The notes: generated by a model not told the origin, from the sequence alone. Counted from the stretch's first letter, positions 1 to 44,741 are shown. The stretch: 64,000 nt of DNA from an uncultured Bacteroidales bacterium (GCA_964452905.1 CAYVNP010000001.1:93066-157065), one strand, 5' to 3'. A program made the numbers and translations.

Positions 1-3000
1 AAAAGAAATTTGATAATCATAATCATGTAATCCGGATGCATCAGGATATCCGCTCCCTGATATGTTTCCCGACTTATCTGTAGCTTTGATGAGCAATTCA
101 TAATTCCCATCCTCAGTAAATACAGGGTCCCATTCAATCCGTGCTGTATTTTTGGGCAATGTTGCTGCTGTAAATTTCAGAATTTCAATTCCGTTTTGCA
201 TAAAATAAATCCGTTTGGGTGATTCACCGGTAGGAGTCTTAAGATATATCCTGAACAGAGAAGTATCATTTAATAATAAATATTTATTTTCATCATTTAA
301 CGTAATCATCACTTCGGGTTTACCGGAAACAATATCTCCATTAAGTATATGAACACCGTCAAATGTTAAATCAAGTATAGGATTGGTTTTATCTTTCCCA
401 ACATAAAAATTCTTTTGAAGAATATTATTAAAATGAAATTGTTCTGGCTGAAAATACTGATCATTCAAAGGATTCACCGGATTTACTTCAACCCATAAAC
501 TATTCAGTCCTCTCAATCCATTCGATGGGAATGAGATGGAATCAATCAATATATCTGCCGAGGGATGTAAACGTGTTTTCTTATAAGCAAGTTCATGGAC
601 AACTCGGCTCTGATCAATCAACCAGTAATGATTAATGATCGTATCTTTAAAATTAAAATCACTGATGTTATGCGTTGCTATCGTAACTCTAACCTTTTCA
701 CCTTCGGTAAGTGTATCCTTGAAAAAACTAAAACGAATTGATGGGTCAATAGCTGTTTCAGGTACTTCATCAAATAACACATGCCATCTTTTTAAATATG
801 TTGGTGTTCGGGTTAAATTATCCTTGGTAAATAAAATCAACTTGAGATAAGGATAAACGGCAGCATCAATGCGATTATAAAGGTCTGTAATATCAATTGA
901 ATCTTTTATCGGAGGAAGATTACGAATGACGGTATCAATATCACCATTCTTTTTTATACCGATCACTTTTAGCATGACTGTATCGGTAACCGGAATTTTT
1001 TCTTTGGGTATACTTCGCCAGTGCAATGAATTCCATCGAAAAGCAGGACCAATTAATGTAGATTGGATATATCCTTCATTCCATTTCACAACAATACTGT
1101 CTTTCAGTTGAATGATCTGATTCTGGGCAACAGCCGTTATTTCATGCGAGGAATGAATTGTATCTTTATATTTTTTCCCAAAACATATATAAGGTGTCTT
1201 ATTCCCTGCATTCACAATATTCTGACACCCACATGATTTGAATGCCCGCTGAAGTTCAGGTGGATAAAACTGACTATTCAGATCACGATGACTATAGGTT
1301 AGAAAAAAATAACCTTCGGGTACAGAGTCAATAAACCCTTTCATCCTGCTGAACCATTCTTGTTGTGTAATTAAAGAAAAATCTTGAGTAGGATAATCAA
1401 AACCCGGACGGACATTATCATTTTTGCATTGATAACTCAAGTATTTACCTGTATATTTATTTTCGGGATTACCTGCCGAATTGAGCCATGGGTCTCCGGT
1501 TACCGGATCAAATACCATAAACTTCACCCCTCCGTTACGATCACCCAGGCATGACCATTCACTTATTAAGAAACCATTTACCCTGCACCATTCTTCTCTC
1601 CAGTCAATATATGGATAATAACCTGTTTGAACTGTTAATGCTTTAATATCATTTGAAAATTGGAATGAACGAAGCAGATGATCATATTTGATAAATTTAA
1701 AATTATCTTTTTTGAACTGAAAGAAATGCGCCTGCCCCCATCCTCTTTTACCGGAAATATATTGAAATGAACTTTCTCTCCAGTTGTATTTCCCATAACT
1801 TGATGAATCAATTCCTACCCGCCAAAAAAACACTGTGCTGTCTTTGGCAAATGCAACAGGAGCATCCCAGGTAACCACCCCTCCTGCATGGCTAACAATA
1901 CCACGGGCTAAAGGATTCAGAAACAAATCGGTTGTATCTATTTCAAAAACATATTTACGTTCAGGAGCAAAAGGATTACCGGTATATGCTTTGAGAGTTA
2001 CCTTATTTTGAGGTATAACCGAATATTCATAAGGATAAACCGGCATGATGTCATAGGATGTAATCGGTAACACGACAGTAACTGAATTATTTAATTTGCT
2101 TAATTCACTGATTTCATTCCAGGCATCTAATGTTATCTTCAAGGTATTCAATCCAATCCCTTTGAATGAATTAACATCTAAAGACACTGTAACCGTATCC
2201 TGATACATAGGTGCATGAACACGGAGATTGGTATCTTTCTGTGAACCATCAGGAAATGTGCGGGTAATATTAATGATATACTCAGCATGAACAGCTTTGC
2301 CTAAGTTGGTTGCAATAATATTTATGTTAAAAGATTTTAAATCGCCTGTAACATTTTCAGGTGTAAAATAGACAGATGAGGGTGAAATTGTATAATCCGG
2401 TTTACCGGAAGAACTAAGGCAAATAGCAGGATCACCATGATAAACAAATTCATAAATCAAATTCTTATAATTAAAATCGTTAACCTGGATTGTTTTTATC
2501 GTTTGCTGAATGGAGGTGCCGAGCGATTTACCATAATTTTTATATGCAATATTCCGATATAACTCATCGGAATAAATATTCAGATAATAATCTATTCCTT
2601 TGGTGATGGATGCCAGATAAGCGATAGCGCCTTTATTGGCAATAAGAACATATATTTCACTTGAACTGTTCTGTTCAGAAAAAATATCTCCTGCAAAACA
2701 AGAATTGGCAATCATGAAGGGATATTTACCCTGATTGTTGTATTCGGACGGATAATCAATACTTTCATCAAAGCCAATGCCGGAAGCGTGTCCAAAGAAT
2801 GTCATCATGGAAATACCATTATTGATCATATTTTTAAGTGAATCTGAACGATTGATCTGAAAAGGAGTTGCCGATGTTTTGAAAAAACTATTCACATGAC
2901 CGCCAAATAAAGTGTCTTCAATGATATTTTTATAATTATTTAAATATTGTTTGAAAATATTCTGCTGATTTAGATTGACGCCGCCGCCAAAATGCAACAC

Positions 3001-4728
3001 CTGTTTCATCCACTCTTGAGGATGTTTCAATGCTGTTTCGTGCTCCTTGACTTTATTCAGATATAAAAGCACATCCTCATTGGTTTTGGCACTTAGTCTG
3101 CCGGTAGCAAGTGCAGGATAGTAAACCGGATCATTCAGATGAGCAGTAAGAAGTATATCTGACGGTGGTGTCCCCATAGAGGGTACAAGCGTCATATCAT
3201 AGGTAAGCGGGTCTTTGCGGTAAAATTTTAATACACTGTTGATCTCCGAATCATCCCCTGACCGATACGCTTTTCCGATTAAAAATAAATATTTGGGATT
3301 GATTGAAAACTTAGATAAGCAATCACGAATAAAATTTCGGATTGCCAACGGATGTTTCCCAATACCGTATGCATATTGGTCATACAGGTCATCCACATCT
3401 GCCAGCAATGTTTTATAACCGGTTGAATTCCGGTAACTGCTGTACTGTGAAGCCCCTGTCAGCAAACGTTTATGGGTAATAATCAAATAATCGGAATTAA
3501 TATATTTTCCGGCGCAATAATTAATAAACTTTGCGTAGGCAGATGGATTCGTATTTACCGGTATCAATGAAGAAATAGATTTTATCTGATGATCGGATGT
3601 GATGTAACAAAATTTTTCAGCACCTGTATTAGCAATTAAAGCTGAATACGCATTTCCATTTTTATATACAGCAATACGTTTGTGATTGGTCAGATCAAAT
3701 AAACGAACCGTATCATTGTTCTGAACAGCAAGACTGGTCATATTCAGCAGGGATTTTATCTGAGGTGAATCAGGAATATACATGGCTGCACTTGAATCAT
3801 TTCCCAGTTGAAACGTATGGGGATATTTAACCTGCAGATAAGCAATTGTATTTCTGTCAGCTTGATTATTCGGCAGATCATTGATAGATGTGAATGTAAA
3901 CTGTGTGTTAGTAGTTGATAACTCAGCAGGGGAAACTGAGTAATTCAGTTTTATCATTTTAAATCCTTCAAAGATGGTATCAAAAGATTTTCCTGCAAAA
4001 GTTATACGAACATGATGATCCGGATCAACTGACTGATAATTTGACTGCCCTATCAACATACATTCAATGTTAGCAGGAGGACCGCCAACATAAGAGTTTC
4101 TTGTATTTAAACTTTTTGTAATTGTTCCGCCAAGTTTAAACCCATTATCAAACCAACCCTCTCCAGAAATATAGTCCGGATCGCTGATTCCATCCGGTGA
4201 CACATCACCAAGAAAATAATGATCACTATAATCAACACGTGAACGTTTATAAAAAAAAGGAATTGACTGATAAGCAGAAAAATTATTATCATCCTCCACT
4301 TTCATTCTTCTGTTGCTGATCAGGTTATTAAAGGTGAGAAAATAAATTGCCGTATCATTAAACAAGCTGTAGTCGGGATTTGCCTGTGAAGAAGGACTAT
4401 CAAATAAAGGGATGTCAAAACGACCATCATTTTTTGTTCCATAAAATTCAATGTAATCCGAACCGTCAAAACGACCATCCTTTTCACCGGGAATATAAAT
4501 ATATTGTTCTTCTCCATATTTGAAAAGCTGGATGGAACGGGGATCGATTGCATTGGGATCAATTCCTGCATTTTGCAATGTATTCAGATCAATGCGATAA
4601 ATTCCCTCCTGATTTATCTTTATTTTAAAATATGATTGCGAATAATTGATCCATTCATTTCCTATCGGTTGAGCAAGAGAATTACCGTAGAAAATTAATA
4701 ATACAAGTATGACAATAATATATTTCAT
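1..4728 (-). CDS. PorU-like C25 (gingipain-family) cysteine peptidase, putative T9SS sortase paralogue; N-terminus complete, C-terminus beyond the window edge
   Basis: My own minus-strand translation from ATG 4728-4726 (signal peptide MKYIIVILVLLIFYGNSLAQ) stays open for 1576 codons down to base 1. I checked triplets for stops in several stretches. It is absent from the supplied track only because it has no stop in the window; no other >=60-aa ORF exists between 1112 and 4106. It has a C25-type dyad: FFGHASGIGF (His codon 2788-2790) and FMIANSCFAGD (Cys codon 2698-2700). Confidence 0.8.
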   Translation of the reverse strand, partial: MKYIIVILVLLIFYGNSLAQPIGNEWINYSQSYFKIKINQEGIYRIDLNTLQNAGIDPNAIDPRSIQLFKYGEEQYIYIPGEKDGRFDGSDYIEFYGTKNDGRFDIPLFDSPSSQANPDYSLFNDTAIYFLTFNNLISNRRMKVEDDNNFSAYQSIPFFYKRSRVDYSDHYFLGDVSPDGISDPDYISGEGWFDNGFKLGGTITKSLNTRNSYVGGPPANIECMLIGQSNYQSVDPDHHVRITFAGKSFDTIFEGFKMIKLNYSVSPAELSTTNTQFTFTSINDLPNNQADRNTIAYLQVKYPHTFQLGNDSSAAMYIPDSPQIKSLLNMTSLAVQNNDTVRLFDLTNHKRIAVYKNGNAYSALIANTGAEKFCYITSDHQIKSISSLIPVNTNPSAYAKFINYCAGKYINSDYLIITHKRLLTGASQYSSYRNSTGYKTLLADVDDLYDQYAYGIGKHPLAIRNFIRDCLSKFSINPKYLFLIGKAYRSGDDSEINSVLKFYRKDPLTYDMTLVPSMGTPPSDILLTAHLNDPVYYPALATGRLSAKTNEDVLLYLNKVKEHETALKHPQEWMKQVLHFGGGVNLNQQNIFKQYLNNYKNIIEDTLFGGHVNSFFKTSATPFQINRSDSLKNMINNGISMMTFFGHASGIGFDESIDYPSEYNNQGKYPFMIANSCFAGDIFSEQNSSSEIYVLIANKGAIAYLASITKGIDYYLNIYSDELYRNIAYKNYGKSLGTSIQQTIKTIQVNDFNYKNLIYEFVYHGDPAICLSSSGKPDYTISPSSVYFTPENVTGDLKSFNINIIATNLGKAVHAEYIINITRTFPDGSQKDTNLRVHAPMYQDTVTVSLDVNSFKGIGLNTLKITLDAWNEISELSKLNNSVTVVLPITSYDIMPVYPYEYSVIPQNKVTLKAYTGNPFAPERKYVFEIDTTDLFLNPLARGIVSHAGGVVTWDAPVAFAKDSTVFFWRVGIDSSSYGKYNWRESSFQYISGKRGWGQAHFFQFKKDNFKFIKYDHLLRSFQFSNDIKALTVQTGYYPYIDWREEWCRVNGFLISEWSCLGDRNGGVKFMVFDPVTGDPWLNSAGNPENKYTGKYLSYQCKNDNVRPGFDYPTQDFSLITQQEWFSRMKGFIDSVPEGYFFLTYSHRDLNSQFYPPELQRAFKSCGCQNIVNAGNKTPYICFGKKYKDTIHSSHEITAVAQNQIIQLKDSIVVKWNEGYIQSTLIGPAFRWNSLHWRSIPKEKIPVTDTVMLKVIGIKKNGDIDTVIRNLPPIKDSIDITDLYNRIDAAVYPYLKLILFTKDNLTRTPTYLKRWHVLFDEVPETAIDPSIRFSFFKDTLTEGEKVRVTIATHNISDFNFKDTIINHYWLIDQSRVVHELAYKKTRLHPSADILIDSISFPSNGLRGLNSLWVEVNPVNPLNDQYFQPEQFHFNNILQKNFYVGKDKTNPILDLTFDGVHILNGDIVSGKPEVMITLNDENKYLLLNDTSLFRIYLKTPTGESPKRIYFMQNGIEILKFTAATLPKNTARIEWDPVFTEDGNYELLIKATDKSGNISGSGYPDASGLHDYDYQISF

Positions 4729-5846
4729 TAAAATAAATGTTTTGTTTTTTGTTTGGGTTTATTAAAACATAACTTTAATGAAAACACATTTGAATAAAGA
4801 GAAATGGAGCGATCTCCAAGATCGGTCAGGGTATAATCAATGGAAATACTTTTCATGATATTTACTCCCACACCCATATTTATCTGATAAGAAGAAACCC
4901 GTTTATTTGCATTGTTTGTTAGATGCTGAAAATTCCCAAACCCTGCACGAAGAAAAATAATTTTATTGTATGAAACCTCCAGACCTGCATGTGGATCAAT
5001 ACTGACAGGATTTGACGCGATCATTACATTTCTTTTTCTGTCAAACGTAATATCAGCATCCAATGCAACAAGGCAAGAAATTTTGGGTGTTAAATTTATT
5101 TTTCTGGCAATACCCGGAATTAATTTGGGGAGAGTAATTTCTAATGAATTTTCAGGAACCGTATTTCCGAGTAATGTCAATTGTGCTTTATCCTCATCTG
5201 TAAAATCATATTTCCAGGCATTGAAGGTGGTGGTAATATCTCTGCCCATTAACCCAAACATCCAGTTGTTGAGCTCATACTGCAAACCAAAGTCAATACC
5301 AAACCCCCATGAAGAAGCGAAATAACCTGCTTTGTTGTGAATCACTTTTGCCGTAGCCCCGTATCGTAATCCATTTATTTTAGTATTGGCATGTCCGTAG
5401 GAAAGAAAAAATCCATAACCGACAGCAGAGAATGAAGTTATCTTATCATAATTAAAATTCCCTTCACTGTCAATAAAATAAAGCGTGTTGGGAATATCAT
5501 CCACTCCTACCCTGATCACGGAAAGACTAAGCCCGCCTGATGTACCTGTTTTTGCAGCTATTGCACCATAATCATATTTGGCTATTCCGGCAAAATATTC
5601 ATTGTGCATCAAAGCAATTTGTCTTTCATTTTCAAGTTTCCCAAGCCCGGCTGGATTCCAGTAACCAGCTGTAACATCATTGGTTGTTGATGAAACAGAA
5701 TTGGACATAGCCAAAGCCCTTGCCCCAACACCAATTGAAAGAAAATCATTGCTGTATTTTGGAATTTGAGAATAAACAGAAAAACAACATATATAAAATA
5801 AAAATATATGAAAGTAAATGAATTTTATATACTTAAAATTATACAT
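4728..5846 (-). CDS. PorV/PorQ-family outer-membrane beta-barrel protein (PorV-like)
   Basis: 372-aa ORF with a signal peptide ending SVYSQ. It has the N-terminal motif SIGVGARALAMSNS...AGYWNPAGLG typical of PorV/PorQ barrels, an alternating beta-strand pattern and a C-terminal F. Its TAA stop overlaps the ATG of the downstream C25 gene (TAATG). Confidence 0.7.
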   Translation of the reverse strand: MYNFKYIKFIYFHIFLFYICCFSVYSQIPKYSNDFLSIGVGARALAMSNSVSSTTNDVTAGYWNPAGLGKLENERQIALMHNEYFAGIAKYDYGAIAAKTGTSGGLSLSVIRVGVDDIPNTLYFIDSEGNFNYDKITSFSAVGYGFFLSYGHANTKINGLRYGATAKVIHNKAGYFASSWGFGIDFGLQYELNNWMFGLMGRDITTTFNAWKYDFTDEDKAQLTLLGNTVPENSLEITLPKLIPGIARKINLTPKISCLVALDADITFDRKRNVMIASNPVSIDPHAGLEVSYNKIIFLRAGFGNFQHLTNNANKRVSSYQINMGVGVNIMKSISIDYTLTDLGDRSISLYSNVFSLKLCFNKPKQKTKHLF

Positions 5847-5985
5847 AAAGGATAATGATTAACAAAAATAATGATTTAATTGAATATAATTTTGTTTTCG
5901 TTGAAACAATAAAAATATTCTAAGAAAGAATTAGTTTAATTGATTTTTAATTTTATAAATTGGCTCCATCAAAAATTAATCAACC

Positions 5986-8157
5986 ATGAAATATTCAAAA
6001 AAATTAACATTTTTCTTTTTATTATTTCCATTTTTAACTTTTGCACAAAAAGGAAAAGATGGTATTAAAAACATAACCAATGCCGATTCCATCGTCAATG
6101 TGTATACCAATCTTACAACAAAAGCAAATGCGGGAGCAACGACAATAAAAGTTGGTAATGGATCAATTGTCCAAACCGGTGATTTGGTTATGATCATACA
6201 AGTGCAAGGTGCTATTATTCAGGCAGGTCGTGTAATTCCTGATCCTGCAGGTGGTCCCGAAGCACCCGCTCCGGGTTTGAATCCTGAAGACTGGGGAAAA
6301 GTATTAAATTTACAAAACACAGGGAAATATGAATTGCGCGAAGTAGCCAGTGTTTCCGGTAATACCATTACACTTACCTGTCCTCTCCAAAATACATATG
6401 ATTTTCAATATACTTCCAAATGTTCATCAAATCCCGGTGATCGAAATTTATCGGGAACCTGTAATTTTACTGCAAAAGTTGAAATTGTTAAGGTTCCACG
6501 TTATCAAAGTCTGACCATTAATGCAGGACAAAAAATTACATCCCCTTCATGGAATGGAACAACCGGAGGTATTATTGCTCTTGAGGTAAACGGTGATATT
6601 AAATTAGATGGCAATATTGACGCATCTTTCAAAGGGTTCAGAGGTGGAGCAGCTCAACCGGCAAGAGGAGCGGGTGATAATGTTTTATGGTTCTGGACAA
6701 ATAATAATGTGAGTGGCGGTGAAAAAGGGGAAGGCATAGCCGGATATCAGGCAGATTATGATCTTTATGGCGGACGATGGAGTCGTGGTGCACCTGCCAA
6801 TGGCGGTGGCGGCGGTAATGGACACAACTGTGGGGGTGGCGGAGGCGCTAATGCCGGCGACCTTTCGCTTTATGACGGGCTGGGAACGCCTGATACATCT
6901 ATTACTGACTGGATACAAGCATGGGAACTGGAAGCTAAAGGGTTTTCAAAACATTATTCTTCAGGTGGCGGCAGAGGCGGTTATGGTTGGTCAAACAAGG
7001 AACAGAATGCATTGTTAATCGGTCCCGGGTTAAGCAGTTGGGGTGGTGAAAGCAGACAAAACCGTGGTGGCCGCGGTGGTCGCCCTTTGGATTATAATAA
7101 TACAGGAAGAATCTATATGGGCGGTGGTGGCGGAGCCGGTGATGCCGATAATGGCTGGGGAAAACCCGGTGGCAACGGCGGTGGAATTGTATATATCGTC
7201 TGTAATGGTCAAATCACAGGGGCAGGAAAAATTCTGTCCGAAGGTCAGAAAGCTGCTCCGGTAGATGGCATTTCATTGTTCGGCAGCCACGACTGCTGCA
7301 CAGATGCCGGTTCAGGCGGAGGTTCTGGTGGAACCATCATTGTAAATGCTTTAAATAATGTCAGCGGTATTACTATATCTGTTCGGGGAGGTGATGGAGG
7401 AGACCAGAAATACCGTGATCCGAATATACAACCCGAAGCCGAAGGACCCGGCGGTGGCGGTAGTGGTGGATTTGTTTCTGTGAGCGATGCTTCACTTACA
7501 GGCAATATTTTTGGTGGAAATGGAGGAATCACCACCAGCACAGCCATGACTGAATTCAAAGTTAATGGCGGAACAAAAGGCGCTGTCGGTTTTTCAATCA
7601 AAGCGACCATTGAAGTATCTGACGTAGAAATATGTGCTGATACGCTCACAACATTAACTGCGAAAATTATCGGCGCTGCGCCTACCGGAACAAAGATTGG
7701 CTGGTATGACGCACAATCCAGTACAGATACGTTGGCAACAGGTAAATTCACAACGCCTATTCTGTATAGCAAAAAAACATATTGGGTTGGTGCTTATACC
7801 GATGATTGCGGCACTCCATTCTATATTAAACGTGTTTCAATGAATGTTAATGTAAAAAATTGTAAAAAAGATACCTCTTCGGTCAAAGCACCCAATGTCT
7901 TTACACCCAATAATGACGGCGTGAATGATAAATTCAAAGTTGAACATTCAGGTACGTTTGATAACTTTTCAATCGTTATTTTCAATCGTTGGGGAAGAAA
8001 AGTATATGAAGCAAAAGATATCAGTTTTGAATGGGATGGGAAAGATTGTGATGATGGCGTTTATTATTATGTCATCAATGCAAAAGGATCCGATGGGAAG
8101 GATTACAATGCAAAGGGCAATAAAGGAATGAGAGGAACTTTAACTATTTTACGTTGA
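5986..8157 (+). CDS. Glycine-rich secreted protein with T9SS type B (gliding-motility-associated) C-terminal sorting domain
   Basis: 723-aa ORF with signal peptide ...FLTFAQ and many poly-Gly blocks. The C-terminus APNVFTPNNDGVNDKF...IFNRWGRKVYE...WDGK...DGVYYYVI...RGTLTILR matches the type B CTD consensus. Confidence 0.85.
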   Translation: MKYSKKLTFFFLLFPFLTFAQKGKDGIKNITNADSIVNVYTNLTTKANAGATTIKVGNGSIVQTGDLVMIIQVQGAIIQAGRVIPDPAGGPEAPAPGLNPEDWGKVLNLQNTGKYELREVASVSGNTITLTCPLQNTYDFQYTSKCSSNPGDRNLSGTCNFTAKVEIVKVPRYQSLTINAGQKITSPSWNGTTGGIIALEVNGDIKLDGNIDASFKGFRGGAAQPARGAGDNVLWFWTNNNVSGGEKGEGIAGYQADYDLYGGRWSRGAPANGGGGGNGHNCGGGGGANAGDLSLYDGLGTPDTSITDWIQAWELEAKGFSKHYSSGGGRGGYGWSNKEQNALLIGPGLSSWGGESRQNRGGRGGRPLDYNNTGRIYMGGGGGAGDADNGWGKPGGNGGGIVYIVCNGQITGAGKILSEGQKAAPVDGISLFGSHDCCTDAGSGGGSGGTIIVNALNNVSGITISVRGGDGGDQKYRDPNIQPEAEGPGGGGSGGFVSVSDASLTGNIFGGNGGITTSTAMTEFKVNGGTKGAVGFSIKATIEVSDVEICADTLTTLTAKIIGAAPTGTKIGWYDAQSSTDTLATGKFTTPILYSKKTYWVGAYTDDCGTPFYIKRVSMNVNVKNCKKDTSSVKAPNVFTPNNDGVNDKFKVEHSGTFDNFSIVIFNRWGRKVYEAKDISFEWDGKDCDDGVYYYVINAKGSDGKDYNAKGNKGMRGTLTILR

Positions 8158-12073: not shown

Positions 12074-13465
12074 TTAATTCAATTTATAGGCCACTTTTAA
12101 TTCTAATGAGTAAGGCACAAAACCAGAACCATTCTGATTCATATTAAATAATTCATTCTTATCCAAAGAACCGTATGGTAAAAACAGTAAAGAAGCATTA
12201 ACGCCTAGTTCCCATTTATGTTTTTTGTCAGGGTCAAATTTAATCGCTAATATAAAACCTAAGTTATAACGATGATAATGATTTGGCAGAATCGTTTTAG
12301 AACTTCTATTATTAATAAATGTTTTTCCACACCAATTATTCTGCCATAAGTGCAATACCCCAATCATACCCCCTTCTATCGCAAAACAATTATAAAAAGT
12401 TTTATCAACTGTCAATGGAATTCGGAGAACTTCTTCTTTACTGTAAAAATTAAAATGCTTACCATTTGAAGAATTAATATCTTTTTTTGTTGTATCAATG
12501 GTATGGTTGTAGGATATTAATTCAATTCCTGTTTTCAAACTAAATGATTTATAAAAAGGATATGAATAATAAACACCTCCGCCAATATTTGATATTAATT
12601 GAACAGGGGATTGAAAATGAAATAAAGATTGATAATTAAATAATACCCCTATCCTGAAACTTTGTTTTTTAATTTTAGCTGAATCAATCGAATCCGTTTT
12701 GTAGGGAGAGGATAAAATTATTTTACCCATGAATAATGTATCAAATGAATTTATTCTTGAAAATCTAGGATGCAAAAATTCCAAAAGATCGAAAGTAGGT
12801 TTAAAATTATTAATCATATTTAAATTCTCAGAATATAATGTAGGGTGAAATTTTAATTGCTGGTTCATTTTTTGAACATCTGATTGCGCTTCATCTATCG
12901 ATTTTATTTTGTTCACAAGTGATTCAATGGGTTCCTCCTGTTTATACTTTTCTGATGTTAGATTGTTTTTAGAATATCCCTGATTTTTGACTTCATCCTT
13001 TTGATGCTTAAGTTTATTAACCTTGGTGAAAGTTTTTCCATAAGAATTTATTTTTACTATATTTTTATTATGTTGTTCCGATTCCATAATTTTCTGTTTT
13101 CTGTTATTGGAATTTGAAATTTTTTGTTTTTTCTCATTTTTAAATAATGAAACAGAAACAGAGGAATTGGTTTTCTTACCTGATATTATATTTATTTTTT
13201 TCTGATCCTGTAAAGCATTTTTTCTGATTCGTTCAGAATCTAAGTAAATTACTAAAACAGAAATAAGACCCAATGTTGAAAGCACAAAAAATATTTTTAA
13301 AAAGTTAACCATTTTGATAATAGACCATGGATGAAATATTGGTTTTGAGGCAAGAGTAGATTTAGCCCCCGATTCAACCAGTAAACGAATATCATTTAAA
13401 GAAATGTCAGATTCTTCGTTTCTGGCTTGCTCAAATAATTCCGAAATTTTTTTGTTGGGTTTCAT
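12074..13465 (-). CDS. Membrane protein downstream of the ECF sigma gene (candidate anti-sigma) with a C-terminal beta-barrel-like domain
   Basis: 463 aa: a short cytoplasmic N-terminus, one TM helix (FLKIFFVLSTLGLISVLVIYL), a K/N/Q/S-rich linker, and about 230 aa of alternating beta-strand pattern ending YSLELKVAYKLN. It starts 15 nt after the sigma gene stop. Confidence 0.5.
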   Translation of the reverse strand: MKPNKKISELFEQARNEESDISLNDIRLLVESGAKSTLASKPIFHPWSIIKMVNFLKIFFVLSTLGLISVLVIYLDSERIRKNALQDQKKINIISGKKTNSSVSVSLFKNEKKQKISNSNNRKQKIMESEQHNKNIVKINSYGKTFTKVNKLKHQKDEVKNQGYSKNNLTSEKYKQEEPIESLVNKIKSIDEAQSDVQKMNQQLKFHPTLYSENLNMINNFKPTFDLLEFLHPRFSRINSFDTLFMGKIILSSPYKTDSIDSAKIKKQSFRIGVLFNYQSLFHFQSPVQLISNIGGGVYYSYPFYKSFSLKTGIELISYNHTIDTTKKDINSSNGKHFNFYSKEEVLRIPLTVDKTFYNCFAIEGGMIGVLHLWQNNWCGKTFINNRSSKTILPNHYHRYNLGFILAIKFDPDKKHKWELGVNASLLFLPYGSLDKNELFNMNQNGSGFVPYSLELKVAYKLN

Positions 13466-13479
13466 TTATTTATCATGGA

Positions 13480-14046
13480 TTATATGAGAGTTAAAAGATT
13501 ATTTTTTGCGGGCACTGATTGAGCATTATTTATTTGAACTTCATATTCATTTGGGTCCAACAGAAGTCGAAGTTGTTCACGTGCTCTTTTAATTCTTGAC
13601 TTGACCCCCGAAAGAGTACCACCCTGTAACTGGCGTATCTCTTCAAGAGAAAACCCTGAAATTTCAAATAATACTATTGCTTCTCGCTGCTTGGAAGGTA
13701 ACTGGTTCAGCATCCTGTATAATATTTCCACATCATAACTTATTTCCGGAGAGTGTTCATGGTTTGTCAACTTTTCAGCATCCTTTTCGTTGAACTTTCC
13801 TATAAATTTACTTCTGCGAAAATAATGTAACTGCAACCTTCTTGCTACACCAAACAAATATGCTTTAAACGATTCAACCTTCCGAAGCTTTTCTAAATTT
13901 TCATAGACGATTAAAACAGTTTCACTTGCTAAATCTTGAGCATCGTCACGATTACCGGTCAGTCCACGACAATAACCTATAAATCCACTGTGACATGGAG
14001 TGTACAGTTCCATGAATCCTTCCTGTTTGTTTGTATTTAAATTCAA
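13480..14046 (-). CDS. RNA polymerase ECF-type sigma-70 family factor
   Basis: 188 aa. Region 2 is DAQDLASETVLIVYENL...FKAYLFGVARRL. Region 4 is LPSKQREAIVLFEISGFSLEEI...LSGVKSRIKRAREQL. Confidence 0.9.
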   Translation of the reverse strand: MNLNTNKQEGFMELYTPCHSGFIGYCRGLTGNRDDAQDLASETVLIVYENLEKLRKVESFKAYLFGVARRLQLHYFRRSKFIGKFNEKDAEKLTNHEHSPEISYDVEILYRMLNQLPSKQREAIVLFEISGFSLEEIRQLQGGTLSGVKSRIKRAREQLRLLLDPNEYEVQINNAQSVPAKNNLLTLI

Positions 14047-23330: not shown

Positions 23331-23912
23331 TTAATCGAAAAATAAATATTTCAGATTCAAATAACCATAATTCCCTAGGTCATTAAAGAAAGATGTCCCG
23401 ATTATTTTCAGATGACGCCCATGAGCCGTACGGAGAATATACACATGATTATTGGGTTTAAATGTAAATGGAGGCGGGCCTGCAGGTGATTGTAACATAT
23501 CGTCCAGTAAAGCACAACCGGGAGTTCTTCCCCAGGTAGGAGCCATAGTTAAAATAATCGAGATTGAATCATCGGGAATAAACGATTTGTTTTTGTAGGC
23601 ATTCACAGTTACAGTATCAAAATTGATTTCACCCAGATCAAGAATCGCTCCCTGACCGATTCCACTTTTCCCCCCATTGGTTCTGAAACTTTCAAAACGT
23701 ATTCCAAGATCCCAGCTGAGAGTGTCCTGAAAATTTGTTACTGCTATTTCCTTTGCTGTTTCAAAAGAATAGTATTTCCAGTTGAACAGATCATTGTGAA
23801 CATCAATCTGAACAAGTTTTGCATTTGAAGTGGTGTCATCTTTTTTGTCTTTTTTGCATCCTGCCAACGTTAGTAAAAGGGTGGCAATAATCATTGCATT
23901 TTTAATTTTCAT
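23331..23912 (-). CDS. HmuY-family lipoprotein (putative hemophore-like)
   Basis: Lipobox LAGC. The pattern WKYYSF...LSWDLGIRF...RTNGGKSGIGQGA...SPAGPPPF...VYILRTAHGRHLKI is collinear with P. gingivalis HmuY as I recall it. It lies directly downstream of a TonB-dependent receptor. Confidence 0.75.
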   Translation of the reverse strand: MKIKNAMIIATLLLTLAGCKKDKKDDTTSNAKLVQIDVHNDLFNWKYYSFETAKEIAVTNFQDTLSWDLGIRFESFRTNGGKSGIGQGAILDLGEINFDTVTVNAYKNKSFIPDDSISIILTMAPTWGRTPGCALLDDMLQSPAGPPPFTFKPNNHVYILRTAHGRHLKIIGTSFFNDLGNYGYLNLKYLFFD

Positions 23913-23938
23913 AATATATGTTTTAAGTGGTACTGTTT

Positions 23939-26101
23939 TTATTTTTTAAAATAGGTATATGCTTTATCTAAAGATAGGTTCAATTGACAGAATACTCTTC
24001 GCCCCGGATCAATATTAATGAGGTCAGATGTTTTGTGGTAGTTAAAAAGGTTGTCGATCCCAACCGTTACTCTGGCAGCGCCATTTAAAAATTCATGGAT
24101 GGTGACCAGTTTCCAGATAGAGTAGTCAGGATAAGTTACATTCACAAATACCAATGAATTGTCAGCATAATCCTGATACGTTTTTTGGCTATAGTATTTC
24201 CCATTAAAGGCAAGCCGGAACTGATATTTTTTAAATCGTTTACTGTATTCAATTCCTCCAATTCCGGTATGTTTGCTGATACCTATCAATTCCTTATGTG
24301 TATTCATATCAAGTGCATACGTAAAACTATAACCGATGGTCAGAATTAATTTCCGGATGATTTTATGTCTTATCATATTATCAATTCCAAAGATATTCAC
24401 TTTACTGAAATTAACATAAGAGAAGGTATGATCAGTCCCGGCAATCGGCATTTCCAGGATCATATCTTTCAGATGTGTATTGTAAATATTTATACTGTAG
24501 TCCACCCGGTTTGTTTGAATCTCAGTTGAAAGCGAAGCGTATTGCGATCTTTCCGGCTTCAGGTCTTTATTCCCCTGGAACGCAATGAATCCGAGATCAA
24601 AATCATAATAACGTTCTTTGATACTTGGTACACGGAATCCGTAACCATAGGTTCCCCTGAAAACAAATTTACCAACTGTATACATCAACGAAGCTTTGGG
24701 TGAAAAAGAAGGTCCGAATTCGGAATGTATATCGGTGCGGAAGCCGATCACGCTGCTCCATCGTTTATTCATCTTCATTTCATCTTGCATAAAAAAAACA
24801 TAATTATGATTCTGCTTGGAAGAATCCTGAATACGTTCAGCATACATTTTATCTGAAAAATATTCAATGCCGCCAATGATATTTTGTTCTTTAAAAAGTT
24901 TATGTGGTTTCAAATGATACTCACCAATCAAACGACCGGTCATTTGAGTGTTGTCATAATTCTTTCTTTTTTCATTATTCAGTCGTTCCAGAATATCATA
25001 CGATTTGTAATCATCTCCGTAGAAACTACCTGTCAGACTGAACCGTTCATTGATCTTGAATTTGCTGCCCAGTCCACCGCTGAAATCAACATAAAGAGGA
25101 TGTTTATTAATAACAGCCACATCAAACCGTTCGCGTGAAAAGTAGGACCCATGCAGATTTAATGAAATTTTCGGTGTAATATCATAATTGAATTTTTGAA
25201 AAACAGAATATATTTCATAAGGTTCAACGGTATATAAATCAGGTGTTGCCGGTGTCAGGTCGTATCCGGATGATTGTTTACGCACAAAATCAGTAAAGCT
25301 GGTGAAATTATTTTTTTTAAAGCCGACATTGGCGCCTGTCTCCAGTTCATTGTATTTGGAATATCGTCCATATATATTTGATTCAAACGGTTTGACAGGT
25401 GTATGGGTTATAATGTTGACCACACCGCCGATGGCGCTTGAACCGTAAAGCGATGAGGATGCACCTTTAACAATTTCAACCTTATCAATATTAGATGTGT
25501 TCAATCGTGAATAATCAATATTGTCGCGGTTCTCACCTGCAAAGCGTTCCCCGTCAAGCAGGAACAAGGTATATTTTGCCGATAATCCCTGCACCCTGAA
25601 TGTGAGTCCGCGCCCTTCGTTGTAAAACTCAACACCGGGCATGGTGCTGTTGATAGCATCTGCAATATTCGTTGTCCCTGTATTTTGTATTTGTTGCGTA
25701 TTCACGATCTGGGTTAATACAGGAACATCTTTTAACAATTGATCCGTTCGTGAAGCAGTAATAACAACCTCATTAAAATCAGTAACCGATTCATTCAGAT
25801 ATATTTTTAATTCATGTATAGATTGTTGAATGGATAATTTCTGCTGTTTCGTGGAGTATCCCATGGCGCTAAAAAATACAGTATAGATGCCTGGTTTTAC
25901 AATTTTAAAAAGAAAATGACCATTTACATCAGAAACTGCATGTTTGTTGGATTCTTTCAGGATAATATTCCCTGAAGCAATGGGTTGTTTCGTGGCTGAA
26001 TCCAGAAGAAACCCGGTAAATTCAATGGATTGAGACCAAGCGCTCTTTCCAAGAAAAAAAAACTGGATAAAAAGAAATAATATATAGATCGTTCTTTTCA
26101 A
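23939..26101 (-). CDS. TonB-dependent receptor with N-terminal carboxypeptidase-regulatory-like domain
   Basis: 720 aa with a signal peptide, a plug domain (VVITASR...DVPV...) and a C-terminal barrel. The apparent TTG start overlaps the upstream stop (cattgaaaa). Confidence 0.92.
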   Translation of the reverse strand: MKRTIYILFLFIQFFFLGKSAWSQSIEFTGFLLDSATKQPIASGNIILKESNKHAVSDVNGHFLFKIVKPGIYTVFFSAMGYSTKQQKLSIQQSIHELKIYLNESVTDFNEVVITASRTDQLLKDVPVLTQIVNTQQIQNTGTTNIADAINSTMPGVEFYNEGRGLTFRVQGLSAKYTLFLLDGERFAGENRDNIDYSRLNTSNIDKVEIVKGASSSLYGSSAIGGVVNIITHTPVKPFESNIYGRYSKYNELETGANVGFKKNNFTSFTDFVRKQSSGYDLTPATPDLYTVEPYEIYSVFQKFNYDITPKISLNLHGSYFSRERFDVAVINKHPLYVDFSGGLGSKFKINERFSLTGSFYGDDYKSYDILERLNNEKRKNYDNTQMTGRLIGEYHLKPHKLFKEQNIIGGIEYFSDKMYAERIQDSSKQNHNYVFFMQDEMKMNKRWSSVIGFRTDIHSEFGPSFSPKASLMYTVGKFVFRGTYGYGFRVPSIKERYYDFDLGFIAFQGNKDLKPERSQYASLSTEIQTNRVDYSINIYNTHLKDMILEMPIAGTDHTFSYVNFSKVNIFGIDNMIRHKIIRKLILTIGYSFTYALDMNTHKELIGISKHTGIGGIEYSKRFKKYQFRLAFNGKYYSQKTYQDYADNSLVFVNVTYPDYSIWKLVTIHEFLNGAARVTVGIDNLFNYHKTSDLINIDPGRRVFCQLNLSLDKAYTYFKK

Positions 26102-26481
26102 TGCCTGATCATGATTAATATAGCTCCGGTAATATAAGCGAGTACCCAGTAAATGTAAACGAACATCGTCCCTCTGAAAAATCGAGGAGAAATTATTTTA
26201 TCAGTTCCGTTTGTTTGAATAAACCGCAAACAAAGTATTGTTTCTATCAGCATACCGGTTAAAGAAGAATAACCGATCAATCCATGCAACGTGATGGCTC
26301 CCTGACTTGATCCAATAACCATGCAGATGGTCGAGGTCAAATCAAAAAACACACCAATGGAAAAAAAAGTAAAAACAATACGGCTTAAAATTTTTTCCTT
26401 TGACAGTTTAAGGAATCCGATCGTATAAAATATCAATGCCAGATTGACTATAATAATACCGACAGTTAAAATGGGTTTCAT
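26098..26481 (-). CDS. Small 4-TM integral membrane protein (possibly HsmA/TIGR03987-like)
   Basis: 127 aa with four hydrophobic helices. It is the first gene of the receptor operon. The family assignment is from memory of this architecture, not from a search. Confidence 0.6.
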   Translation of the reverse strand: MKPILTVGIIIVNLALIFYTIGFLKLSKEKILSRIVFTFFSIGVFFDLTSTICMVIGSSQGAITLHGLIGYSSLTGMLIETILCLRFIQTNGTDKIISPRFFRGTMFVYIYWVLAYITGAILIMIRH

Positions 26482-32360: not shown

Positions 32361-34790
32361 ATGAAAATCAGACTTCATTATCTGTTTTTTTTTATCCTGA
32401 TTTTATTTTTTTTATATTCCTGCAAACAAAATAGATTTCAACCGAACTGGAAGTCATTGGAGCAGGTGAATCCAGCGCCTGAATGGTTCAAGGATGCAAA
32501 ATTCGGTATTTATTTTCATTGGGGCGTATACAGTGTACCTGCTTTTGGCAATGAATGGTATCCGCGAAATATGTTCAATGCCGGTTCCAATGAAAATAAA
32601 CATCATACGGAAACCTATGGTAATCCTAAAGACTGGCCTTATCATTTTTTTATAACAGGAGCAAAAGACCTCAAAGGAAATTCTATTCAGTTTGCTCCAA
32701 AGCTGAAATCAGAAGGCGGACAGTTTGATCCGGATGAATGGGCACAATTTTTCTCGGATGCTGGCGCACGTTTTGCCGGACCGGTTGCCGAACATCACGA
32801 TGGGTTCTCCATGTGGGCAAGTAAAGTGAATCCATGGAATGCAAAGGATATGGGGCCTAAACTGGATCTGGTCAAACTTTTAACTGATGCCATACGAAAA
32901 AAAAATATGAACGTATTTCTTTCAATGCATCATGCTTTCAATATTACAGGATATTATGAATTCGTTCCTAAAACAAATGATCCTAAACTGCAGATATTAT
33001 ATGGTCAGCAAAGCAAAGAAAAAAATGAACAACTGTGGCTTGATAAACACAAAGAGATCATTGATCAGTATCAGCCGGACATCATATATCAGGATTTTAA
33101 TCTGTCCAAAATAGATGAAAAATATCATCTGGAATTTTTATCGTATTATTATAACAAAGCCGATGAATGGAACAAAGAAGTCGTGACCACCTATAAAGAT
33201 GAGTACAATAAAAAATGTTCCATGCTTGATTTTGAACGTGGTGGTCCTGCCGACTTAACTGATTATTACTGGCTCACAGATGACGCCATCAGTTCATCCA
33301 GTTGGTGTTATACCGAGGGAATCAGCTATTATTCCAAAACCGCCCTTCTTCATGCCTTAATTGACAGGGTCAGTAAAAATGGCAATATGATTCTGAATAT
33401 TTCCCCCCGTCCGGATGGCAGTATTCCTCAGGGACAGAAAGATATATTGTTGGCAATGGGGGCATGGTTAAAGAAGTATGGTGAAGCCATTTATTCCACC
33501 CGTGCATGGGTGAAATATGGAGAGGGGTCAACGAAGATGGGCGCCGGACATGGCGTATTTACTGCTCCTCAGGAAGGTAAACCCGATGATATCCGGTTTA
33601 CAAGGTCAAAAGACAATACAATCCTTTATGCCATTTTACTGGCATGGCCGGGTGATCAGACGAAATTTACGATCAAGTCCCTGGCAACCACCCGAATTCA
33701 TTTACAATCCCTGAAAGAAGTTTCATTGCTTGCACCCGCAGGAAGCAAAAATATACCTCTCGCATTTTTTCAGGATTCAACAGGACTCCATATTACTCTG
33801 CCGGTCAAACCTTTAGAAGAAATGGCTTATGTAATCAAATTATCTTATAAAGGACAAATCCCTACCTATGATAATTATTTTGAACTGAATGAAACAGAAA
33901 AATATTATACCATCGTTTCTAAAGAAAACATGGGATTGAAGGTAAACAATACAGACAGCAAGGGGGCAGTAAATTTTTCTTCTGATAAAAAAAATCATGC
34001 CCAGCAATGGAAATTTGTTAAAACAGGGAAAGGATTCTACAAAATTCAAAACCGAAAAGATTCACAACTTGTGCTGGAATGCACTGAAAATACGGATAAA
34101 TCTATGATCGTTCATTTGGCTAACTATTCATCTGCCGATAATCAACAATGGAAACTGGTGAATGCTGACGACGGATTTTATTATATCCTGAATAAAAAAT
34201 ATACGAATTACGGTCTTGATTTTACAGGCCCTCCATCCAAGATCACACGCATTGAAAGTAAAAAATTTGATAAAGACAAATCCCACAAATGGGCGCTGAT
34301 GGATGTATGTGAAAAAATCCGGACACCCTTTAAACCCAATATTATCCCGGGAACCATTGAAGCGGAAGATTATGATAACGGCTGCCCGGATGAAGTATAT
34401 TTTGATTCAGACCCTCAATGCAGCGGTGGAGAATATCGGACTGAAAACGGCGTAGACATTGAAAAATGTATCAAAGGTGGCTACAATGTCGGATGGACTG
34501 CTACAGGTGAATGGCTTGAATATACCGTGAACGTTAAACATTCAGGTACCTATTCATTGAATATTCATACAGCTTCCGGTTCAAATGGAAATAAATTACA
34601 TATTGAATTTGACGGGATTGATAAAACCGGACCTGTTGTAATCAATACTACCGGAGGTATTCAAGTATGGAAAATCATCTCAAAAACATTTAAATTAACT
34701 GAAGGAAAACATATCATGAAGGTATTTTTTGATGTTGCCCCCGGCGGATGTAATCTGGATAAATTTGATTTTGTTTATAATAAACACTGA
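32361..34790 (+). CDS. GH29 alpha-L-fucosidase with ricin-type lectin and CBM6-like C-terminal modules
   Basis: The N-terminal half has FGIYFHWGVYSVPAFGNEWYPRNM and further GH29-like segments. QQWKF/QQWKL (QxW) repeats follow. The C-terminal module is IEAEDYDNG...GWTATGEWLEYTV. Confidence 0.9.
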   Translation: MKIRLHYLFFFILILFFLYSCKQNRFQPNWKSLEQVNPAPEWFKDAKFGIYFHWGVYSVPAFGNEWYPRNMFNAGSNENKHHTETYGNPKDWPYHFFITGAKDLKGNSIQFAPKLKSEGGQFDPDEWAQFFSDAGARFAGPVAEHHDGFSMWASKVNPWNAKDMGPKLDLVKLLTDAIRKKNMNVFLSMHHAFNITGYYEFVPKTNDPKLQILYGQQSKEKNEQLWLDKHKEIIDQYQPDIIYQDFNLSKIDEKYHLEFLSYYYNKADEWNKEVVTTYKDEYNKKCSMLDFERGGPADLTDYYWLTDDAISSSSWCYTEGISYYSKTALLHALIDRVSKNGNMILNISPRPDGSIPQGQKDILLAMGAWLKKYGEAIYSTRAWVKYGEGSTKMGAGHGVFTAPQEGKPDDIRFTRSKDNTILYAILLAWPGDQTKFTIKSLATTRIHLQSLKEVSLLAPAGSKNIPLAFFQDSTGLHITLPVKPLEEMAYVIKLSYKGQIPTYDNYFELNETEKYYTIVSKENMGLKVNNTDSKGAVNFSSDKKNHAQQWKFVKTGKGFYKIQNRKDSQLVLECTENTDKSMIVHLANYSSADNQQWKLVNADDGFYYILNKKYTNYGLDFTGPPSKITRIESKKFDKDKSHKWALMDVCEKIRTPFKPNIIPGTIEAEDYDNGCPDEVYFDSDPQCSGGEYRTENGVDIEKCIKGGYNVGWTATGEWLEYTVNVKHSGTYSLNIHTASGSNGNKLHIEFDGIDKTGPVVINTTGGIQVWKIISKTFKLTEGKHIMKVFFDVAPGGCNLDKFDFVYNKH

Positions 34791-39987: not shown

Positions 39988-41265
39988 ATGACTTTCCAGA
40001 AAACATTTTATTTAAGTAAGATTTTAGAAAAACGTCTTTATGATCCGCAAGGTCATTCAATTGGCAAGATCAAAGACGTTTTGATTGATCTTCATCCTTC
40101 GGGATCAGATGAGAATACTTCTCCAAAACCAAAAATTACCGGTTTGAAACTTAAATCCGCTGGTCAGATTCGTACTATTGCTTTTGACGAAGTGGAAATC
40201 ACCAAATTCAAAGGAGACTTCACGGTTAGTTGTAAAGAATTGATTGAACTGAGCGAAGAAAAAATTAATTCCGGACTATTCCTGAACGAAAATATTCTGG
40301 ATAAACAAATAGTTGATATTAACGGAAGAAAAGTAGTACGGGTGAATGATATTCGTTTGGTTATAGTTTCCAGCGGTGCTTATGTTATTGCAGTTGATGT
40401 GGGTATTGAAGGGCTATTACGCAGGATTGGCATTGCTAAATTTTTTCAGCGGTTATTTTCCTTATTCAGAGTTTCTATCCCATCCAAATTTATTTTATGG
40501 GATGATGTTGAAACCATTGATCATTCACGGCATAGTATTAAATTATCCAAAACATCTTCCAAACTTCATCGCTTGCATCCGTCGGATGTTGCGGATATCA
40601 TTGAAGAACTCGGACGTGCTTCCAAAACAACTGTATTTGCTACATTGGATGAAGAAAAAGCTGCCGATGTGCTTGAAGAGCTTGAACCGCATGTACAAGT
40701 GGATATCATTGAAAGTCTTCCTGTTCATAAGGCTGCTGACGTACTTGAAAAAATGCCTGCCAATGAAGCTGCCGATATTATTGATGAACTGGAAGATGAA
40801 AAAGCCGAACAATTGCTGAATGAGATGGAAGTTGAATCATCCGAAGAAGTCAGAGAGCTTTTAGAATATCCTGCTTATAAAGTGGGAAGTATTATGACTA
40901 CTGATTACCTTTCATTCCGGAATGACCAAACCGTAGAGGATGCACTTCAAATCATCCGTTCTCAAAAACCGGAAACAGATCTTTTATATAATTTGTTTAT
41001 TACCGATCAAAATGAAAAACTGATTGCTACTTTATCACTCAGGGATTTAGTGGTGTCTGAGCCGCAGGTTAAACTGGATCAGATCATGAAAAACAAACCG
41101 GTCAAGGTATATGATGACGATCGGATTGACTTACTCGCTGAAATAACCGAGAAATACAATTTGCTGGCAATACCGGTTATTGATCAAGAAGATTCATTGT
41201 TGGGGATGGTAGTCATCGATGATATTATTGAAGACCTTGTAAATAAAGGAAGAACCAATAAATAG
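39988..41265 (+). CDS. Soluble PRC-barrel + MgtE N-domain + CBS-pair protein (MgtE cytoplasmic sensor module without a membrane domain)
   Basis: 425 aa. It has acidic helical repeats (DVADIIEEL...AADVLEELEP...AADVLEKMP...AADIIDELEDEKAEQLLNEM) typical of MgtE_N, followed by two CBS motifs. No hydrophobic segments. Confidence 0.85.
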   Translation: MTFQKTFYLSKILEKRLYDPQGHSIGKIKDVLIDLHPSGSDENTSPKPKITGLKLKSAGQIRTIAFDEVEITKFKGDFTVSCKELIELSEEKINSGLFLNENILDKQIVDINGRKVVRVNDIRLVIVSSGAYVIAVDVGIEGLLRRIGIAKFFQRLFSLFRVSIPSKFILWDDVETIDHSRHSIKLSKTSSKLHRLHPSDVADIIEELGRASKTTVFATLDEEKAADVLEELEPHVQVDIIESLPVHKAADVLEKMPANEAADIIDELEDEKAEQLLNEMEVESSEEVRELLEYPAYKVGSIMTTDYLSFRNDQTVEDALQIIRSQKPETDLLYNLFITDQNEKLIATLSLRDLVVSEPQVKLDQIMKNKPVKVYDDDRIDLLAEITEKYNLLAIPVIDQEDSLLGMVVIDDIIEDLVNKGRTNK

Positions 41266-41277
41266 GAGGATTTTGCC

Positions 41278-42528: not shown

Positions 42529-42618
42529 TATGTGTTAACTGAATATTTAAACTTCTCTGTATTTATCATCCTGAAAATTTATTTATATCTTTACCATCAC
42601 ATTAACTGTTTTGGTTGA

Positions 42619-44124: not shown

Positions 44125-44183
44125 TACAAACAAACATATTTATATTATTCAAATATGATATTTAATTTTTAATTACACCATCC

Positions 44184-44741
44184 ATGTCCATTTTTACTAT
44201 TTTATTAATCGCTATTGGACTTTCTATGGATTGTTTTGCAGTTACCATTGCCATTGGATTTACGTATGATAACTTTCAACGTAAACAGGCATTACGGATA
44301 GCTGCCATTTTCGGATTATTTCACATTCTGATGCCAACCCTTGGCTGGCTGATAGGAACTCCTTTTAAACAATTCATTTCTGATATCGATCATTGGATTG
44401 CTTGTATTATGCTTTCGGGAATTGGCATCAAAATGATTGTTGAAGCCATCAGAAATCATCCTGAAGAAAAAAAAGATATCAATAAAATCATGGTTCTTAT
44501 CTGGCTTGCATTTGCTACCAGTATGGATGCACTGATCATCGGAGTCAGTATGGCTTTTCTGGATGTTAATATTTTTATCATACCGTTCATATTTGGATTG
44601 ATTACATTTTTGATTTCATTTATCGGATGCTCCATCGGAAAAAGATTTGGATATATTCTTGGTGAAAGAGCTGAAATTATTGGCGGCTTGGTATTGATCG
44701 CTTTAGGGGTAAAAATTTTACTTGATCATACATTACTTTAA
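44184..44741 (+). CDS. mntP: Manganese efflux pump MntP
   Basis: 185 aa with 6 TM helices and the duplicated motifs LSMDCFAV / TSMDALIIG characteristic of MntP/YebN. Confidence 0.9.
   Translation: MSIFTILLIAIGLSMDCFAVTIAIGFTYDNFQRKQALRIAAIFGLFHILMPTLGWLIGTPFKQFISDIDHWIACIMLSGIGIKMIVEAIRNHPEEKKDINKIMVLIWLAFATSMDALIIGVSMAFLDVNIFIIPFIFGLITFLISFIGCSIGKRFGYILGERAEIIGGLVLIALGVKILLDHTLL

Follow-up and report, generated by a model that had tools for sequence, protein, structure and literature searches.

Type IX secretion system (T9SS) cargo of Bacteroidota can be released or fixed on the surface of the cell, and how it is sorted between these two fates is stated to be an open question in a review (PMC10202324). 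The described systems that come closest to the locus treated here combine an outer-membrane barrel with a partner protein that carries a C-terminal domain (CTD). In the canonical PorU–PorV pair, represented by Porphyromonas gingivalis PG0026/PG0027 and by the proteins of Flavobacterium johnsoniae, PorU keeps its CTD, with which it remains bound to PorV, and the CTD of PorZ stays on PorQ, so that here too a barrel of the PorV family carries a surface protein by means of a CTD that is not cut off (PMC10202324). Another kind of pairing is formed by PorP/SprF barrels and type-B substrates, where the gene of the barrel adjoins the gene of the CTD protein that is handled (PMC12618676). Here we describe a stretch of DNA of 64,000 nucleotides from an uncultured Bacteroidales bacterium (GCA_964452905.1 CAYVNP010000001.1:93066-157065; the whole stretch is called the window below), at the left end of which a gene for a PorV-type barrel, porV2, overlaps with a gene for an oversized PorU-like peptidase, porU2. 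The pair is paralogous to canonical PorU, PorV and PorQ and not a member of these families, and it is not PorP/SprF. Pairs of this kind have already been catalogued by NCBI curators under the names PorV2 and PorU2, and the window locus is an ordinary member of them, not a new type of system.

The pair is encoded on the minus strand and comprises the following features, with positions counted from the first nucleotide of the window:

4728 to 5846, minus strand: porV2, encoding an outer-membrane beta-barrel of 372 aa that is of the PorV/PorQ (FadL-like) type
5769 to 5846, minus strand: signal peptide of PorV2, residues 1–26, a hydrophobic N-terminus followed by an invariant Gln27
5640 to 5732, minus strand: N-terminal PorV-type motif GVGARALAMSNS...AGYWNPAGLG of PorV2, residues 39–69, from the sequence and alignment A3
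4726 to 4730, minus strand: TAATG overlap of the porV2 stop and the porU2 start, read directly in the sequence
1 to 4728, minus strand: porU2, codons 1–1576 of 1697, encoding the oversized PorU-like C25 peptidase, the final 121 residues of which lie to the left of the window
2422 to 3489, minus strand: peptidase C25 catalytic domain, residues 414–769 (Pfam PF01364)
2788 to 2790, minus strand: codon of catalytic His647, in FFGHASG, invariant in alignment A1
2698 to 2700, minus strand: codon of catalytic Cys677, in ANSCFAG, invariant in alignment A1
19 to 2073, minus strand: PorU2-specific extension, residues 886–1570, with evidence from a structural model, Pfam and a cluster search
1171 to 1380, minus strand: ILEI-like domain, residues 1117–1186, a weak Pfam match
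1 to 18, minus strand: start of the PorU-like CTD (residues 1571–1697, mostly off the window), from an alignment to PorU 6za2

The two genes meet in the sequence TTT-TAATG-AAA, in which the TAA and the ATG share one A, giving an overlap of 1 nt. From position 4728 to position 1 of the minus strand, the frame of porU2 stays open for 1576 codons and then runs out of the window. The 121 residues beyond the edge were taken from a protein database entry (P0001), which originates from a 173,742-bp NCBI contig, represents full-length PorU2 (1697 aa) and is 100% identical to the part encoded in the window. The exact PorV2 protein is on record in a 4.1-kb Logan contig only. That porU2 might be a chance open reading frame (ORF) or a pseudogene is ruled out by the 1576 open codons, together with the conserved full-length homologues among the matches listed. 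An earlier, sequence-only reading of the window had already given the ORF coordinates, the TAATG overlap, the His and Cys codons and a gene with a type-B CTD about 140 bp away, and all of these were confirmed, the distance being 139 bp.

The assignment of the two proteins is based in the first place on curated NCBIfam models. With NF052324, which is named "putative type IX secretion system sortase PorU2" and demands at least 450 bits, the window part of PorU2 scores 761.6 bits over residues 4–881 and full-length P0001 scores 761.3 bits. PorV2 reaches 449 bits over residues 13–361 with NF052325, entitled "putative type IX sorting system protein PorV2", for which the cut-off is 325 bits. Because both proteins clear these curated cut-offs by wide margins, the features of the pair are not due to chance. 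In contrast, the scores obtained with the models of the canonical proteins remain too low. With canonical PorU (NF033707, cut-off 420), the window part of PorU2 reaches 155.5 bits and the complete protein 210.8 bits, whereas PorV2 scores 25.1 bits with canonical PorV (NF033710, cut-off 250), 52.1 bits with PorQ (NF033711, cut-off 220) and 86.4 bits with the joint PorV/PorQ family (NF033709), just under the cut-off of 90. This bears out the proposal of the sequence-only reading that the genes form a paralogous, PorV2/PorU2-like pair. The window proteins are members of the two NCBIfam families and do not differ from them, the family names themselves being qualified as putative, and PGAP already gives the name PorV2 to a homologue (P0178).

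PorU2 is a C25 peptidase of PorU architecture with an intact and invariant His/Cys dyad. The Pfam model of the family, PF01364 (Peptidase_C25), matches residues 414–769 with 197 bits at a cut-off of 23, and the similarity to canonical PorU extends well beyond this domain, positions 4–734 of NF033707 being aligned to residues 30–773 (E 1e-45). His647, in the sequence FFGHASG, and Cys677, in ANSCFAG, are 30 residues apart and do not vary in alignment A1, which comprises 19 family members. A profile of the same 19 sequences matches PorU 6za2 (E 6e-12) as well as the gingipains Kgp and RgpB, the gingipain matches being weak (E 2e-6 to 3e-5) and confined to the catalytic core. In these alignments, His647 pairs with residue H216 of the Kgp chain and with the GH of PorU, and Cys677 with Kgp chain residue C249 and the TC of PorU. 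By our own count, with an offset of +228, we take H216 and C249 to be His444 and Cys477, the catalytic pair of Kgp. Thus, the residues that the sequence-only reading had described as a gingipain-type dyad do align to the C25 catalytic dyad of Kgp and PorU. With the gingipains, PorU2 shares a homologous catalytic domain in which the dyad is aligned; beyond this core, its architecture is PorU-like. Behind the catalytic Cys, for which at least 900 further residues had been claimed, the window encodes 899 residues and full-length P0001 has 1020.

PorV2 is an outer-membrane barrel of the PorV/FadL type. An AlphaFold2 (AF2) model of the protein (predicted local distance difference test, pLDDT, 78.7; predicted template modelling score, pTM, 0.75) has as its best structural matches in the PDB chains 8gl6_F and 6h3i_F, which represent PorV in T9SS translocon structures of F. 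johnsoniae (template modelling, TM, scores of 0.62–0.66), followed in rank by FadL and TodX. One of these chains, 6h3i_F, is also found by sequence with a PorV2 profile, the match being located at the N-terminal motif (E 0.003), residues 39–69 of which are mostly invariant in alignment A3. The Gln at position 27 is invariant across 29 homologues. Since in Bacteroidota a Gln is habitually found at the N-terminus after cleavage by signal peptidase I, the signal peptide of PorV2 is probably removed just before Gln27. A Pfam scan of the window protein gave no match, and the PorP/SprF families gave none at E ≤ 0.01 in either NCBIfam or Pfam, on which ground the possibility that PorV2 is a PorP/SprF protein was dropped. 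The view that the 372-aa protein is a PorV-type barrel, and neither PorP/SprF nor an unrelated barrel, could thus be upheld, with NF052325 passed and PorV as the best fold match.

PorU2 also differs from PorU in size. Compared with the PorU chain of 6za2 (1156 residues), it has about 540 additional residues, due to an extension of some 685 aa (residues 886–1570) that includes the ILEI-like domain. Among 1.84 billion cluster representatives, a search with the extension retrieved 1018 at E ≤ 1e-30, corresponding to about 1000 clusters defined at 50% identity. Full-length proteins among the matches listed are approximately 1600–1810 aa long and carry it at about residues 830–1690; the shorter ones among these matches look like fragments. 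In an AF2 model of residues 886–1697, a string of beta-sandwiches and one alpha/beta domain can be recognized. A Foldseek search with the extension returned generic multi-beta-sandwich proteins, such as alpha-2-macroglobulins, complement C5 and PorU itself, at TM < 0.2 and is not informative. In the alpha/beta part, 17 of the 19 family members have a match to the Pfam family ILEI (FAM3-type), with a best E of 2e-11, and FAM3/ILEI-type domains of animal proteins are known to bind N-acetylglucosamine and mannose (PMC9802357). Because relatives of the ILEI-like domain bind sugars, glycan recognition by PorU2 may tentatively be suggested.

Behind the extension, PorU2 ends with a CTD of its own, a point that the sequence-only reading had left to be checked on the complete protein. 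The CTD of P. gingivalis PorU (residues 1041–1142 of 6za2) can be aligned to residues 1572–1673 of P0001 (E 1e-4), and the models for type-A and type-B CTDs do not recognize this tail. With a mean column identity of 0.80 and 35% invariant columns in alignment A1, the CTD (residues 1571–1697) is the most conserved segment of PorU2, on par with the active-site block and above the C25 domain as a whole.

A protein with a CTD and a gingipain-related C25 domain could also be a T9SS cargo itself, in which case PorU2 would be a surface-anchored gingipain-like protease or adhesin that acts on external substrates, with PorV2 as its private anchor barrel (cf. SprF–SprB, PorQ–PorZ). The array of beta-sandwiches, which resembles alpha-2-macroglobulins and adhesin-like proteins, would suit such an effector, and pairs of genes for a barrel and its cognate substrate are well known in T9SS (PMC12618676; PMC10202324). 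Furthermore, the model name "PorVQ2" and the fact that the PorQ model gives PorV2 a higher score than the PorV model does (52 vs 25 bits) are in agreement with a static anchor. However, the first ~770 residues of PorU2 align to PorU specifically, whereas the gingipains match the core alone and weakly. The listed full-length members resemble each other in length and architecture, the genes have a housekeeping-like context and occur in many orders, which is more typical of machinery than of effectors, and the CTD is far more conserved than cargo CTDs usually are. In view of this, we consider a role as an effector unlikely.

When the pair is set beside its closest described relatives as a whole, PorU2 has in common with PorU the N-terminal region and the C25 architecture, the position of the dyad and a PorU-like CTD; likewise, the partner is a barrel of the PorV fold, encoded by an adjacent gene on the same strand. 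The canonical gene order is porU followed by porV. In the window the barrel gene comes first, the genes overlap, and the scores are far under the canonical cut-offs. PorZ–PorQ offers a parallel for the way in which PorU2 might be held, since a surface protein kept by its CTD on a barrel of the PorV family is what we propose analogously for PorU2. The partners themselves are different, PorU2 being a peptidase and PorZ a beta-propeller protein, and the PorQ score of PorV2 is far below the cut-off (52 vs 220). With PorP/SprF and type-B substrates, the pair shares the adjacency of the genes for the barrel and the CTD protein, but PorV2 has no PorP/SprF match and the CTD of PorU2, to which the type-A and type-B models give no match, is closest to that of PorU.

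The distribution of the family was surveyed with one genome per GTDB species. Relatives are present in at least 571 species, and the best 80 of these loci, all from metagenome-assembled genomes and mostly labelled Bacteroidota (Bacteroidales, Flavobacteriales, Chitinophagales), were used for the locus counts that follow. In 67 of the 80, porU2 is immediately preceded by porV2 in the same orientation. Since 8 of the remaining 13 loci are cut too near porU2 to judge, this corresponds to 67 of 72 informative loci. At these 67 junctions the genes overlap in 32 cases (27 as ATGA), and the gap is at most 30 nt in 56. The gene pair is thus conserved across many Bacteroidota. The reversed order, the overlap and the extra length to which the sequence-only reading drew attention are real, and they turn out to be traits of the whole family that are not peculiar to the window locus. 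A few bins that carry PorU2/PorV2 genes have labels from outside the phylum, i.e. Competibacteraceae (L059, L075), Akkermansia (L060) and KSB1 (P0104/P0134). Such labels, which concern 3 of the best 80 loci, most likely reflect binning or labelling errors and not spread beyond Bacteroidota.

To judge whether the pair stands beside a canonical system or replaces it, other T9SS genes are relevant. Four genes in the window encode proteins with a type-A CTD, all recognized by Por_Secre_tail/TIGR04183:

14175 to 15704, minus strand: type-A CTD gene
31529 to 32347, plus strand: type-A CTD gene
47551 to 48804, plus strand: type-A CTD gene
62058 to 63377, minus strand: type-A CTD gene

One of the four products has a NosD-like domain and another has leucine-rich repeats. 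Four type-A genes are a dense set for 64 kb, and from these, together with one gene for a type-B CTD protein, it follows that the organism uses T9SS. Apart from the pair itself, no T9SS machinery was found within the window. A search with a PorV2 hidden Markov model (HMM) and clustering of C25 sequences revealed no additional PorV- or C25-type gene in the window or in the 80 related loci, and no canonical porU, porV or porQ was found in the window or in the ~1.6 Mb of related loci. The latter result would fit a situation in which porV2–porU2 is the sole PorU/PorV of its lineage, an orthologue of the core pair that has diverged and taken its place. On the other hand, the window and the related loci are a small part of each genome, so that absence means little, and the scores are far below the cut-offs of the canonical equivalog models. 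The "2" in the names chosen by the NCBI curators would imply coexistence with PorU and PorV, which is an indirect argument. PorV is required for type-A cargo, and the many type-A cargo genes found here are a further, likewise indirect, argument against replacement. All in all, we regard a sole pair as improbable, more so than the effector role discussed above.

The region next to porV2 contains the cargo gene on which the sequence-only reading had based its most specific functional suggestion:

5847 to 5985, no strand: divergent intergenic region of 139 bp with two TAnnTTTG matches
5986 to 8157, plus strand: neighbouring gene for a glycine-rich protein of 723 aa that contains an Ig-like domain and, at residues 634–705 (bases 7885–8100), a type-B CTD

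The type-B CTD is recognized by TIGR04131 (50.3 bits, cut-off 35) and by PF13585/CHU_C (75.5 bits, cut-off 27). The protein further contains Ig_7, and AgmC_N repeats are below cut-off. The TAnnTTTG matches, which were located with a regular expression at 5863–5870 on the minus strand and at 5887–5894 on the plus strand, correspond to what we take to be the −7 promoter motif of Bacteroidota. This motif has a density of 1.25 per kb of window, and both intergenic sites are therefore mere consensus matches.

The idea was that the pair may serve this neighbour or type-B cargo in general, with PorV2 in place of PorP/SprF, and that the lack of a PorP/SprF gene nearby pointed in this direction. A type-B gene without a PorP/SprF neighbour indeed lies 139 bp from porV2, and in two related loci a type-B CTD gene with the same orientation as porV2 ends ~50–65 nt upstream of it (L060, 6814..8112; L062, 6574..8145). 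The gene layouts of these two loci are near-identical. Against this stands the rarity of the arrangement. As found with tblastn and a type-B CTD HMM (later iterative rounds of which drifted to PorU2 CTDs and were discarded), only 7 of the 80 related loci have a type-B gene within ±10 kb of the pair, and one immediately adjoins it in 3 of 81 loci including the window. By a rough estimate, this is about the chance level for genomes with tens of such genes. The absence of a PorP/SprF gene holds, but it is not unusual, as F. johnsoniae has orphan type-B substrates that have no adjacent PorP/SprF gene and use a shuttle encoded elsewhere (PMC12618676), and it is therefore no evidence that PorV2 serves the cargo. 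Since, in addition, PorV2 lacks similarity to PorP/SprF and the CTD of PorU2 is PorU-like and not type B, there is no support for a role reserved for type-B cargo. We consider such a dedicated role very unlikely, and the neighbouring gene is not shown to be part of the porV2–porU2 module.

The surroundings of the pair in the 80 related loci are otherwise varied. The commonest neighbour, in 32 of them, is a gene for a ~248-aa membrane protein that lies on the upstream side of porV2 in divergent orientation (e.g. L004, 8506..9252) and that by eye looks like a pssA-type CDP-alcohol (CDP, cytidine diphosphate) phosphatidyltransferase; the window locus does not have it. Other neighbours look, again by eye, like housekeeping genes of lptB, lnt and tatC kind, and nothing is conserved downstream of porU2. 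In one lineage (L082, 16172..17680, on a 4.86-Mb metagenomic contig; also L083 and L084), a gene of the Wzy_C family of O-antigen ligases/polymerases lies directly downstream of porU2. The adjacency is limited to this lineage and is not conserved in other loci, and it is suggestive given the role of lipopolysaccharide (LPS) in anchoring of cargo.

In our view, with a probability of roughly 0.6, porV2–porU2 is a translationally coupled two-gene operon that is paralogous to the PorV–PorU part of the T9SS attachment complex and would, by analogy with PorU–PorV and PorZ–PorQ, act on the CTDs of cargo. According to this model, PorV2 and PorU2 would both be exported by Sec, and PorU2 would cross the outer membrane via T9SS using its own CTD. 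This CTD would be kept on the protein and dock PorU2 onto PorV2 at the cell surface. The very strong conservation of the CTD fits a permanent docking interface better than a disposable signal, and the translational coupling fits a complex of PorV2 and PorU2 in a ratio of roughly 1:1. At the surface, the Cys677/His647 site would process part of the T9SS cargo by removing its CTD, and the processed proteins would then be released or transferred to an acceptor molecule. In the most speculative step, the ILEI-like domain and the long stalk may recognize a glycan acceptor or glycosylated cargo. A possible glycan-binding domain within PorU2 would echo the way in which PorZ hands anionic LPS (A-LPS) to PorU, the enzyme that in the canonical system cuts the CTDs off cargo and links the cargo to A-LPS.

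Several points weigh against this interpretation. It is by analogy that PorU2 is assigned activity as a sortase or CTD peptidase, a CTD that is kept and contact with PorV2. Literature searches for PorU2/PorV2 or a second PorU-type sortase yielded no paper, in line with the sequence-only reading, which knew of no experimental characterization of such a pair; the apparent matches were false, as they consisted of reference superscripts. In 5 of the 72 informative loci (L021, L033, L040, L056, L081), porU2 occurs without an adjacent porV2 even though the upstream DNA is present, and the barrel gene may be located elsewhere or lost in these cases. Furthermore, no conserved cargo or partner gene adjoins the pair in the 80 related loci, the neighbours looking like housekeeping genes. 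The confidence of the model of the extension is moderate (pLDDT 68.8, pTM 0.47), and the ILEI match of the window copy itself is sub-threshold (E 0.022).

A more far-reaching version of the attachment-complex model, which we put forward only tentatively, is that PorV2 and PorU2 form a second attachment complex that is independent and has a specificity of its own. It would process a defined part of the T9SS cargo and couple it to a different surface acceptor that is chosen by the lectin-type, ILEI-like domain, and would in this way unite PorZ-like and PorU-like roles in a single polypeptide. If true, this would explain how cargo is routed to release or attachment in the lineages that carry the pair. 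As a widespread second enzyme of the PorU type that has a barrel of its own and an extension with probable glycan binding, PorU2 is an obvious candidate for part of the answer to the sorting question in these lineages. Experimental handles are offered by the fixed order of porV2 and porU2 with coupling, by the ultra-conserved CTD, by the extension, which occupies the same place in the full-length members listed, and by the lack of linkage to cargo genes.

The remainder of the window contains various other genes. Just downstream of the type-A CTD gene at 14175–15704, a region on the minus strand (12074..14046) encodes an ECF-type (extracytoplasmic function) sigma factor (13480..14046), followed by a 463-aa protein without a family match, which may be a sigma/anti-sigma pair. 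A gene at 32361..34790 on the plus strand codes for an alpha-L-fucosidase that is fused to a ricin-type lectin and CBM6/CBM35 modules and in which a T9SS CTD was not detected. At 55645..61779 on the plus strand, a bacterial alpha-2-macroglobulin-like protein of 2044 aa that comprises MG2, A2M and bMG10 domains is encoded, for which NCBIfam gave no match. A probable heme-uptake operon is located at 23331..26481 on the minus strand, where an HmuY-like gene lies beside a gene for a heme/hemoglobin TonB-dependent receptor; a 127-aa ORF upstream of the receptor gene overlaps its start. Finally, a cluster at 39988..44741 on the plus strand, which looks like one for manganese homeostasis, encodes in a row an MgtE_N/CBS protein, an Nramp transporter, a histidine-kinase-like protein and an MntP manganese efflux pump.

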